DNA from: Nitrosopumilus sp.
GTDB taxonomy: Archaea > Thermoproteota > Nitrososphaeria > Nitrososphaerales > Nitrosopumilaceae
Assembly (NCBI RefSeq): GCF_965263415.1
Contig: NZ_OZ253671.1
Coordinates: 1,292,347 to 1,324,346 of the forward strand
DNA length: 32,000 nt
Direction: 5' to 3'
Both the position numbers and the translations under genes were made by a program. A model generated the notes under the pieces. It was not told the origin of the DNA. It did no database searches and saw nothing but the letters and a program-made list of their open reading frames with translations. How positions within the stretch are numbered: the stretch's first letter is position 1; every line of letters begins with the position of its first letter. This document shows, one piece after another, positions 6,155-12,013 of the stretch.

Positions 6155-6559
6155 ATGGCAGACCCAAACTTTTCTTGGATTTATCTAATAATTTTCTTGG
6201 CCATTCCATTATCGCGAATCATCCCAAGAATTATTGCAAAAAGAAGACAAGCAAATGGCAGTTATTCAACTTTTGAAAAACCAAATCAAGAAAACATAGA
6301 TGTAGTTAGACTAGAACAAAAACAGTCACCATCAAGCCCTCAAACAAAAGATATGCAAGTTTTAGGAATAATGCATCAAGGGGCAAATACATTTGAAAAA
6401 ATCAAAAGAGCAACAAAAATGGAAAATAAAGAACTTGATTCAATTTTGCAAGATTTAGAAAAAAGAAACCTCATCAAAGTAGTACAAAAACAAGGAATGT
6501 TTGGACCAAAAGTCGAACTTTATTCTACAGATAAAGGATTCAAAGAATATTATTCATAA
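6155..6559 (+). CDS. Membrane-anchored winged-helix protein (putative regulator)
   Basis: 134 aa. N-terminal TM helix (WIYLIIFLAIPLSRIIP), then a C-terminal segment TFEKIKRATKMENKELDSILQDLEKRNLIKVV..VELYSTDKG resembling a wHTH. Confidence 0.45.
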   Translation: MADPNFSWIYLIIFLAIPLSRIIPRIIAKRRQANGSYSTFEKPNQENIDVVRLEQKQSPSSPQTKDMQVLGIMHQGANTFEKIKRATKMENKELDSILQDLEKRNLIKVVQKQGMFGPKVELYSTDKGFKEYYS

Positions 6560-8877: not shown

Positions 8878-8950
8878 CTGTTAACCCCCTATAGGCTCAA
8901 AGGTTAACCTTTCCATTATTGTTATAAATGGAAAATATCTGTGTTAGATT

Positions 8951-9931: not shown

Positions 9932-9984
9932 AAAATCAACAGTAACAGTTGTTGAAATAGACATTCAAAAAATTTTATTTTAAA

Positions 9985-10719
9985 CTAATTACACACGGTA
10001 AAGTTATCGTCATTATCATCATACAGATGTTGAATAGCATCTATATGACATTCAGATATGTATGGAATTTCAGTAAGAATCATACTTGACATCAAATCAT
10101 CTGAATCAATAGAATGGCCTAGACCAAGAGCATGTCCAAATTCATGTCTTATGATAGTTGTTAAATCATCAGCAGATAATTTTTCTACATCATAAATTAC
10201 AATATGAGATTGTAAAATTTCACGATCATGAGTCATGATTCTAGCATATCCAGAATATCCATCAGACTCTTTATAATTTGAAAATTGAATTACAATGTTA
10301 TTTTCATTACTTAATGTAGAAACAATGTTGAATTTTGCAGGAATATTGTTTTTAGTATCAATATTTTTAGCAGCAGTTAATGCACCTTCCCAACCCAAAT
10401 AATAGGTGGATTTTGAATTTACCAAGTTATCATTGGATGGATTATCTAATTCAATTGTGTCATGAGATGTTAACGCATAAACAACTGCATCAAGTTGTTC
10501 ATCAGTTAACAGATGACTACCTAAAAAGACAACATCTAGTTCTTCATGGGGTAAAACATTCCAAAATGCAGAAGTGATGATTCCGTTTTTTTCAAGAGAA
10601 AGGAATTTGGATGTTAATGGTGCAACTGCATCAGTATCTTGGATAAAACCAGATAATGAGATCATCAAAAATCCTGCCAACATACAAGAGAAGACTTTGG
10701 AATTTAGTCTGATTTTCAT
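9985..10719 (-). CDS. Secreted zinc metalloprotease, matrixin-like metzincin (M10)
   Basis: 244 aa. Signal peptide, then HEFGHALGLGHS (HExxHxxGxxH) followed by a Met-turn candidate DDLMS. Confidence 0.8.
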   Translation of the reverse strand: MKIRLNSKVFSCMLAGFLMISLSGFIQDTDAVAPLTSKFLSLEKNGIITSAFWNVLPHEELDVVFLGSHLLTDEQLDAVVYALTSHDTIELDNPSNDNLVNSKSTYYLGWEGALTAAKNIDTKNNIPAKFNIVSTLSNENNIVIQFSNYKESDGYSGYARIMTHDREILQSHIVIYDVEKLSADDLTTIIRHEFGHALGLGHSIDSDDLMSSMILTEIPYISECHIDAIQHLYDDNDDNFTVCN

Positions 10720-10726
10720 ATTTTTG

Positions 10727-10784
10727 ACCTATTTCCCAAAGTTGGGAATAAGGTATAAAGTTACCTATTTCCCAAAGTTGGGAA
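10727..10784. promoter_or_regulatory. Two identical 22-bp elements (ACCTATTTCCCAAAGTTGGGAA), 36 bp apart, flanking a TATA box; candidate operator
   Basis: Copies at 10727-10748 and 10763-10784. Each contains TTCCCAA-AG-TTGGGAA (7-nt inverted arms; cores 10733-10748 and 10769-10784). TATAAA at 10754-10759 (TTTATA on the minus strand) lies between them, about 37 nt upstream of the protease ATG at 10719. Confidence 0.5.
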
Positions 10785-10888
10785 CTACATTTAGGCGTAA
10801 AACAGCGTGCCTGAAATGGATGTAAACAGAAAATAGAAGAGATCGCCTTCCTATAGGCATATAAGATTTCAGCAATCAAAATTAGACC

Positions 10889-12013
10889 TTGAAGAAAAAA
10901 TTGAAATTTGTGGATGCAGAATTGCTTGAAATTAAACAAAACAACCTGTATAGAAAATTAAAGTTTGGGAAAATACAAAAGGAATCCATTACAATTAACG
11001 GTAAAAAATTATTAAATTTGTGTTCAAATGATTATCTTGGATTACCAGTAACTAAACTACAAACAAACCAACTTCAATCAAGTTCAAGATTAGTTTCAGG
11101 AAATGATGAATCATACTTAAAACTAGAAAAAGAGCTTGCAAAACACAAATCCCAACAAAACAGTTTGATTTATCCTACAGGATACATGGCAAATCTTGGT
11201 TCAATTTCTGCAATTGCAAAAAAAGGAGATTTAATTCTAAGTGACGAATTAAATCATGCAAGTATTATAGAGTCATGCAAATTAACAGATGCCAAAGTTT
11301 CAGTGTACAGACATAATGATATGCAAGATTTACAATCTAAATCAAAACAAAAAGCACAAAACAAGTTTATCATAACTGAAGGAATATTTAGCATGGATGG
11401 AGATGTATCACACTTAAAACAAATTACAGAGATTGCAGAGAAAACCAATGCGATAACAATTGTAGATGATGCACATGGCGATTTCGTAGTAGGAAAAGAC
11501 GGAAAAGGAACACCAAATTATTTTAACGTTGGGAAAAAAATTGATTTGTATGTTAGTAGCTTAAGTAAGGGATTAGGATCATTTGGAGGATACATTGCAG
11601 CACAAAATAATGTGGTTGATTTGTGTATAAACAAATCAAAGTCATTCATTTACACATCAGCACTGCCATCACTTTTAGTAAAACATTCTCTAAAGCGATT
11701 CAAATCAAATAGAGAAAAACAAAGAAAAAAACTAGAAAAAAATACAAAATCATTAGCAAAAGGCCTCAGAGAGATAGGTTTTGAGATAAACTCAGAATCT
11801 CAGATAATTCCAATAATTATAGGAAAAGAAAAGTTAGCCATGGACTTTGGTAAATTCTTATTTGAAAATGGAGTATTTGCACAGCCCATAAGATATCCTA
11901 CAGTACCAAAGAATCAAGCCAGATTGAGGATTTCAGTCACAGCATGGCTAAATGACAAGGATGTTGAGAGAGCCTTTGAGATATTTGAAAAAGCATACGT
12001 AAAATTCTGCTAA
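10889..12013 (+). CDS. bioF: 8-amino-7-oxononanoate synthase
   Basis: 374 aa. N-terminal ..NNLYRKL, PLP-enzyme blocks (SNDYLGL, DDAHG, SSLSKGLGSFGGY with the PLP lysine). TTG start with CATATAAG about 25 nt upstream. Confidence 0.85.
   Translation: MKKKLKFVDAELLEIKQNNLYRKLKFGKIQKESITINGKKLLNLCSNDYLGLPVTKLQTNQLQSSSRLVSGNDESYLKLEKELAKHKSQQNSLIYPTGYMANLGSISAIAKKGDLILSDELNHASIIESCKLTDAKVSVYRHNDMQDLQSKSKQKAQNKFIITEGIFSMDGDVSHLKQITEIAEKTNAITIVDDAHGDFVVGKDGKGTPNYFNVGKKIDLYVSSLSKGLGSFGGYIAAQNNVVDLCINKSKSFIYTSALPSLLVKHSLKRFKSNREKQRKKLEKNTKSLAKGLREIGFEINSESQIIPIIIGKEKLAMDFGKFLFENGVFAQPIRYPTVPKNQARLRISVTAWLNDKDVERAFEIFEKAYVKFC

Follow-up and report, generated by a model that had tools for sequence, protein, structure and literature searches.

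Twin palindromic boxes around the TATA box of an M10 metalloprotease gene in Nitrosopumilus as probable copies of a genus-wide operator

Two identical palindromic boxes that bracket the TATA box of an M10 metalloprotease gene in Nitrosopumilus are probably copies of a genus-wide 16-bp operator, TTCCCA-N4-TGGGAA, for a dimeric winged-helix regulator. We put the probability of this reading at about 0.72, a figure that covers the operator and its regulon, and not the identity of the regulator. The operator would mark about a dozen other promoters, mostly of genes for secreted or surface proteins, and its further targets would include a second M10 locus, a surface protein of ~10,000 residues, small proteins of an adhesin region, an EamA transporter, a membrane pyrophosphatase and regulator genes. 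Genes with the site downstream of TATA appear to be repressed and those with the site 12–13 nt upstream of TATA activated, and the bound state would correspond to biofilm growth in Nitrosopumilus maritimus. Ammonia-oxidising archaea are among the most abundant marine microbes. To our knowledge they have no genetic system, and we know of almost no specific transcription factor in them with a known site or target. The element supplies a sharply defined putative operator, a shortlist of target promoters in agreement with the genes whose expression differs most between planktonic and biofilm N. maritimus, and two concrete candidate binders for the 58-bp fragment. It also corrects the annotation context, in which the M10 gene and its control region read as a lineage-specific insert and the biotin cluster has its own BirA-type palindrome.

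The window, that is, the whole stretch of 32,000 nucleotides analysed here, corresponds to positions 1292347–1324346 of contig C1 in a genome of the genus Nitrosopumilus (G000; 1.72 Mb, 33.8% G+C). The 22-mer ACCTATTTCCCAAAGTTGGGAA occurs at window positions 10727–10748 and 10763–10784 with centres 36 bp apart, exactly as the first-pass annotation had it, and each copy contains the inverted repeat which that annotation had given as TTCCCAA-N2-TTGGGAA and which reads TTCCCAA-AG-TTGGGAA in full (Table 1). Within 32 kb one would not expect any 22-mer to recur exactly, and the pair is beyond chance; neither the exact 22-mer nor the exact 16-mer has another copy in the 1.72-Mb genome. Tandem Repeats Finder did not report a two-copy repeat at the twin boxes. 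The ACCTAT flank of the 22-mer lies outside the general motif, the flanks of the other genomic sites being merely A/T-rich, and is common to both boxes because these look like a 36-bp tandem duplication. The half-site centres of TTCCCA-N4-TGGGAA are 10 bp apart, about one helical turn. The 36-bp spacing amounts to ~3.4 helical turns and places the two boxes on different faces of the DNA; being out of helical phase, it therefore does not imply simple cooperative binding. The protease TATA box does lie between the boxes, as had been noticed, but not at the exact centre that had been claimed for it, since 5 nt separate it from the proximal box and 9 nt from the distal one. With one box between TATA and the start codon and the other just upstream of TATA, the original description of operator-like boxes for a dimeric archaeal regulator holds up.

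Table 1. Features at the M10 locus (window coordinates) and promoter layouts elsewhere in the genome (contig C1)
Feature	Position	Strand	Layout or comment
M10 (matrixin) zinc metalloprotease, predicted target	9985..10719	-	ATG at 10719; 244 aa; signal peptide; HEFGHALGLGH; Pfam PF00413, E 5.3e-11
Proximal operator core TTCCCAAAGTTGGGAA	10733..10748	.	5 nt downstream of TATA, 13 nt upstream of M10 ATG (minus strand)
M10 protease TATA box TTTATA	10754..10759	-	sequence reading; invariant in three species; predicted
Distal operator core TTCCCAAAGTTGGGAA	10769..10784	.	inside 22-mer 10763-10784; 9 nt upstream of TATA (minus strand)
M10 promoter layout	window 10719-10759	-	TTTATA, 5 nt, site, 13 nt, ATG
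bioF promoter, context only	10850..10866	+	CCTATAGG then ATATAAGA; 22 nt upstream of TTG start at 10889
BirA-type palindrome GTTAACC-N15-GGTTAAC, context only	8880..8908	.	just upstream of bioB TATA (TTATAAAT, 8913-8920)
197-aa secreted protein	C1:1325111		TTAAAT, 0 nt, site, 7 nt, ATG; second site 10 nt upstream of TATA
352-aa secreted protein	C1:1234514		TTAAATA, 3 nt, site, 4 nt, ATG
TrmB-like regulator	C1:1384450		ATAAAT, 8 nt, site, ATG
Membrane pyrophosphatase hppA	C1:938589		TTTATAT, 0 nt, site, 12 nt, ATG
HEAT-like protein	C1:1639504		TTTTATAAA, 7 nt, site, 2 nt, ATG
EamA transporter	C1:1638677		site immediately upstream of start
Receiver-only response regulator	C1:1637411		two mismatches; TTAAATA, 3 nt, site, 7 nt, ATG
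208-aa adhesin-region protein	C1:1033		site 12-13 nt upstream of TATA
~10,080-aa surface protein	C1:1030069		site 12-13 nt upstream of TATA
47-aa ribbon-helix-helix gene	C1:606806		site 13 nt upstream of TATA

The strict pattern TTCCCAANNTTGGGAA matched only at this locus, and the motif was at one point taken to be unique to it; relaxing the two inner bases disposed of that idea and revealed the regulon. A scan of contig C1 with TTCCCA-N4-TGGGAA at no more than one mismatch gave 16 matches, 10 of them intergenic on a crude ORF map, and 14 of the 16 fall in promoter regions once start codons are corrected. The null was formed by 59 composition-matched control palindromes built from a permuted half-site, which yielded a mean of 2.8 matches each and a mean of 0.57 intergenic ones, with a maximum of 3 intergenic. 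Genome-wide recurrence had been named in advance as a check on the first description, and the motif indeed occurs almost only in promoters. The mismatched sites carry their change in a single arm with no compensating change in the other, which fits base-specific protein contacts and not a hairpin constraint. Only the 16-bp core, and not the whole 22-mer, is the general motif. Across the genus, the exact palindrome is present in 52 of 151 genomes as opposed to 1 of 151 for a reversed control, a control that understates the background because TTCC and GGAA words are common in coding DNA; the 59 permuted half-sites are the better null. In other genomes some exact palindromes fall inside coding sequence, such as that of EF-1 alpha, including some in genomes without the TrmB-like subfamily described below. 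Separately, the promoter of a NirK-like multicopper oxidase (470 aa, ATG at 910004) carries TTCCCAAATTGGGAA at C1:909955-909970, upstream of its TATA, with the same arm pair as the motif and a 3-nt spacer.

Eight promoters, that of the M10 gene included, share the order TATA, 0–12 nt, site, 0–14 nt, ATG, and the spread in the distance from TATA to site is more in keeping with an operator than with a core-promoter element at a fixed position. The promoter type of Nmar_0790, the N. maritimus ortholog of the 197-aa gene, resembles the M10 promoter in having two sites that bracket TATA; their spacing is 31 bp, and the distal one is 10 nt upstream of TATA. Matches to the core motif number 15 in N. 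maritimus SCM1 (G063) and 14 in a third Nitrosopumilus genome (G172). In both, orthologous sites were found at the adhesin-region pair, the TrmB-like gene, the 197-aa/DUF4352 pair, the 352-aa gene and hppA, so that conservation at orthologous promoters, the other check named in advance, was borne out. The arms are kept at these orthologous sites and the centres vary. The site at the giant-protein gene is confirmed in SCM1 only, the closest match in G172 lying in a different context.

Several features of the promoters and genes concerned deserve a record of their own. The 47-aa ribbon-helix-helix (CopG-like) ORF at C1:606864-607007 lies between a receiver-only response regulator gene and a TPR protein gene, and this arrangement is kept together with a TTCCCA-type site in five other genomes (G063, G172, G062, G030 and G080). 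The C-terminus of the EamA transporter (C1:1637444-1638673) consists of six perfect tandem copies of the 11-residue unit SKPRELETFHI. A second, GATC-rich motif, CGATCAA-N2-4-CGATC, was seen at C1:1384400-1384450, C1:1234530-1234560 and C1:359800-359835. It is found upstream of TATA at the 352-aa gene and, across many genomes, at the TrmB-like gene and paralogs of it; at another TrmB-family gene (C1:359832) it stands between TATA and ATG. A second regulator may use it as an operator.

The protease gene, whose SCM1 ortholog is Nmar_0820 by exact look-up, stands among biotin genes, and Pfam also confirms bioD, bioA, bioB (radical SAM and BATS) and a bioF-type aminotransferase around it. In most relatives bioF directly follows bioB, the two genes overlapping; an M10 gene was found between them in only three of the genomes examined, namely G000, SCM1 and G172, the protein being 88% and 80% identical to that of G000 in SCM1 and G172, respectively. 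As read from the sequence, the protease gene with its control region is an insertion into the biotin cluster that is specific to the lineage. The insert, consisting of the M10 gene together with both promoters, spans ~950 bp (window 9932-10888), and about 20 nt of the old bioB/bioF overlap (AAAATnGGnCTTnAA...) occur at both junctions, resembling a duplicated target. In RefSeq, the N. maritimus ortholog begins at Met19 (226 aa), so that little of the signal peptide is left; conservation of the earlier ATG and the sequence around it (window 10665-10719) across the three species speaks for the 244-aa form.

In the alignment of the three species, 61 of the 68 columns running from the ATG to the end of the distal box are identical (90%), against 27 of 69 (39%) for the neighbouring spacer towards bioF. 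The arms TTCCCA and TGGGAA are unchanged throughout, and the central four bases vary (AAGT, TAGA, GAGT). In SCM1 the proximal box reads TTCCCATAGATGGGAA, which is still self-palindromic and is no longer complementary to the distal box at the changed position. The 27-nt length of the repeated unit in G172 suggests that a 36-bp tandem duplication took place long ago. A DNA search of relatives with the intergenic region as query returned 33-nt matches that lie in the coding sequence of an unrelated gene, and these were dismissed as chance. The bioF promoter element is itself invariant at 20 of 21 columns, and it is independent of the twin boxes, because G009, in which bioB and bioF are separated by a spacer of ~90 bp, has the element (CTATAAGCATATAAGATTTCA) with neither the M10 gene nor the boxes.

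Three other readings of the pair have to be set against an operator. The possibility raised at first sight, which places the boxes in a regulon of the surrounding cluster that responds to biotin (through BirA) or to metal, draws on the location between bioB and bioF and on the zinc-protease target, and on nothing else. It fails on the insertion and the box-free bioF promoter of G009, and further because most relatives, in which bioB overlaps bioF, lack both the M10 gene and the boxes; upstream of orthologous bio genes there is either that overlap or a short box-free spacer. No TTCCCA-type site was found at any bio promoter (bioD/bioA and bioB were checked), the twin boxes do not match the BirA/bioO pattern GTTAACC-N14-16-GGTTAAC, and the other genes carrying the motif have no biotin link. 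What stands upstream of bioB instead is the palindrome at 8880-8908, the only perfect copy of GTTAACC-N15-GGTTAAC in the genome. A BirA operator consensus is reportedly given by Rodionov et al. 2002, and the palindrome is presumably of that operator type; it is likely the real, if putative, biotin operator of the cluster. Its spacer contains CCTATAGG, which recurs in the bioF promoter at 10850. A biotin link of the twin boxes is thus rejected, and a metal-responsive regulon is as good as discounted with it.

A neutral origin of the pair is a more serious contender, though an unlikely one. According to it, the pair is a by-product of a 36-bp tandem promoter duplication in which only the proximal box works, or neither, the distal copy being a passenger. 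The identity of the two 22-mers, the 27-nt repeated unit of G172, the ACCTAT flank outside the general motif and the spacing out of helical phase all speak for such a history. On the other hand, both boxes are kept in three species next to a spacer that has fallen to 39% invariant columns, and the proximal box of SCM1 has changed both inner bases and is still palindromic, which indicates that each box evolves as its own unit; the unrelated Nmar_0790-type promoter also has two sites bracketing TATA. For the distal box taken singly, a passenger origin keeps some likelihood. Far less probable is a role as nucleic-acid structure, either a 58-nt cruciform at TATA or an RNA hairpin in a read-through transcript from bioB to bioF. 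The single strand does fold into a long hairpin (-27 kcal/mol, z-score -4.4), but any palindrome present twice in tandem will fold in this way. In SCM1 each box still pairs within itself, while the altered position of the proximal box no longer pairs with the distal one, and the genome-wide sites tolerate uncompensated one-arm changes and are mostly single copies. Moreover, most sites lie upstream of the expected transcription start and would hence be untranscribed, and no T-tract follows the element.

For the operator reading, published expression data from the sister species N. maritimus give the sites a possible direction. Log2 fold changes of biofilm versus planktonic N. maritimus were taken from Dataset S4 of a biofilm study (ISME J 2025, PMC12448741), Nmar_0820 being identified as an ortholog by exact look-up and the remaining genes by their order; no Nmar locus tag was found for the 352-aa gene. 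Where the site is downstream of TATA, values are negative for the TrmB-like gene Nmar_0705 (-5.46), for Nmar_0704 in the same operon (-4.49), for Nmar_0790 (-1.73) and for the M10 ortholog Nmar_0820, whose -5.87 (adjusted p 6e-5) is fragile because the gene is nearly silent in both conditions, with very low counts (PMC12448741). The M10 paralog Nmar_0706, a neighbour of Nmar_0705, stands at -2.35, its link to a site of its own being unclear, and hppA (Nmar_1231) breaks the pattern, since it too has a site downstream of TATA but changes by -0.29, which is not significant (PMC12448741). Where the site is upstream of TATA, Nmar_0455 (+3.05), Nmar_0456 (+6.04), Nmar_0459 (+4.11) and the giant-protein gene Nmar_1073 (+3.31) all rise, and these rising genes rank among the most significantly changed in the data set (PMC12448741). 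The pattern would fit a regulator that is bound to DNA in the biofilm, repressing from downstream of TATA and activating from upstream.

Regarding the protein that binds, the wHTH protein at 6155-6559 that had been suggested has a sub-threshold wHTH match only (E 6.5e-4) and no link to the motif, and it was set aside. The most likely binder, with a likelihood just short of even, is a TrmBL2-like protein (hereafter candidate A) of 276 residues encoded at C1:1384466-1385296 and orthologous to Nmar_0705. It has a TrmB wHTH domain (PF01978, E 4.5e-14) with no Pfam match beyond it, and a C-terminal sugar-binding effector domain was not found with Pfam. Its similarity to the TrmBL2 structures (5BPD, 5BOX) extends over the full length (residues 29-273 versus 8-263, E 2e-9), and it is the sole member of the TrmBL2-like subfamily in G000. 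The operator lies between the TATA and the ATG of its gene in three species, and in the same position at 47%-identical paralogs beside an EamA gene in five genomes (G019, G083, G102, G123 and G067); in G020 it abuts the start of such a paralog. The recognition helix of these paralogs is nearly the same, PR(T/S)ETYH, but its comparison was uninformative, as paralog groups with and without the autoregulatory site are nearly identical there (PRTETYH). The TrmB-like gene and an M10 gene form a divergent pair in at least seven genomes. In the distant soil ammonia oxidiser Nitrososphaera viennensis, a TrmB (arCOG02037) and an M10A peptidase are likewise paired (NVIE_000920/000930), mirroring Nmar_0705/0706, and the pair lies directly beside a biofilm-induced adhesion region (NVIE_000920-000950; PMC12448741, Dataset S2).

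The distribution across genomes is of mixed bearing on candidate A. The mean number of exact palindromes is 1.5 for the 45 genomes that encode the subfamily and 0.2 for the remaining 105, a tally that overstates the case because related genomes are not independent samples. Intergenic sites are absent from G087 and G010 and number one or two in G032, all three being complete genomes without the subfamily. Evidence against candidate A comes from G080 and N. piranensis (G065), where three or four promoter sites, at hppA, the response-regulator/RHH locus and the HEAT-like gene, persist although no member of the subfamily is encoded. Likewise, the promoters of the 66–68% identical orthologs in G071 and G072 are without the site, and a search of them for variant palindromes gave nothing consistent. 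The known TrmB motifs (TACT-N3-AGTA and TATCAC-N5-GTGATA) differ from the boxes in sequence and spacer length. TrmB of N. maritimus is described as uncharacterised in a 2014 review of the family (PMC4158304).

A competing binder for the same operator, plausible to some degree but doubtful, is the ArsR/HTH_20-like arCOG03067 ('MPGLD...') protein, which would work with adjacent receiver-only response regulators and leave the TrmB-like gene as a mere target. Three paralogs in G000 (C1:1639432, 606402 and 15636) each lie within ~1.5 kb of sites, and two of the three are divergently paired with a REC-only response regulator, a pairing described in thaumarchaea (Galperin et al. 2018, PMC5847659). 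G080 and G065, the very genomes that keep sites without the TrmB-like subfamily, both encode the family, and in G000 and SCM1 a site lies 7–8 nt upstream of the gene's TATA. Nevertheless, these proteins have no Pfam DNA-binding domain match, and their own promoters are without a site in the TATA-to-start position; distant paralogs (32–37% identity) occur in G087 and G032, which have almost no intergenic sites, and Nmar_0453 is unchanged in the biofilm (PMC12448741). A slightly slimmer chance still is given to a binder outside both families.

Taking the twin boxes again as operators, we infer the following arrangement at the M10 promoter. One dimer would occupy the stretch between TATA and the M10 start, and a second would sit 9 nt upstream of TATA, so that the two would bracket the TBP/TFB site and keep the gene tightly shut. 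The proximal box, in the stretch from TATA to the expected transcription start, would hold the classic position for blocking recruitment of RNA polymerase, and TFB would probably be blocked as well. The distal box is 3–4 nt closer to TATA than the sites of the seemingly activated promoters, and it therefore probably hinders TFB at the BRE and does not recruit it. Two sites bracketing TATA fit the near-silence of Nmar_0820. A more far-reaching proposal, which we hold only tentatively, is that one position-dependent regulator, with the TrmBL2-like Nmar_0705 family as its candidate, switches marine ammonia-oxidising archaea between free-living and attached states. This family, encoded beside an M10 protease from Nitrosopumilus to Nitrososphaera, would bind TTCCCA-N4-TGGGAA, turn its own operon and the secreted M10 proteases off through sites downstream of TATA, and turn giant adhesins on through sites 12–13 nt upstream of TATA; the twin-box M10 promoter would be the most tightly repressed target.

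Searches of the literature on the motif, Nmar_0820, thaumarchaeal TrmB regulons and N. maritimus start sites returned nothing specific. Better-known archaeal systems serve here for comparison. In archaeal promoter-proximal repressors such as MDR1, LrpA and Phr, sites over TATA and the start, or between them, block RNA polymerase or TBP/TFB. TrmB acts in a similar promoter-proximal manner at malE (PMC4158304). The element here is like all of these in placing an inverted repeat between TATA and the predicted start region, but it differs in that two identical sites bracket TATA and in that the motif also occurs upstream at induced genes. The thaumarchaeal pairs of a REC-only response regulator with an arCOG03067 protein adjoin several copies of the motif in both G000 and N. 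maritimus (Nmar_0452/0453); they have no reported DNA binding or target motif, and no such pair lies near the M10 promoter. Among solved structures, the nearest to candidate A is TrmBL2 (PDB 5BPD, 5BOX and 5BQT), which has the same short architecture and is likewise without a C-terminal sugar-binding domain (PMC4158304). The recognition-helix tyrosine of TrmBL2 is conserved in candidate A, whereas the residue after it is His in candidate A and Asp in TrmBL2; moreover, TrmBL2 is abundant, chromatin-like and of little sequence specificity, in contrast to a sharp motif at few promoters. TrmBL1/Tgr of the Thermococcales, with its operator TGM (TATCAC-N5-GTGATA), differs from the system proposed here in the sequence and spacing of the operator, here TTCCCA-N4-TGGGAA, in that the candidate here has no recognisable sugar-binding domain and its binding is putative, and in that the targets here are secreted or surface proteins and not sugar metabolism. 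The likenesses are a TrmB-family winged-helix protein as the candidate binder and operators that are in both cases 6-N-6 palindromes of about one helical turn. TrmBL1/Tgr represses from downstream of TATA and activates from upstream of BRE/TATA (PMC4158304), and the effect in Nitrosopumilus also seems to depend on the position of the site.
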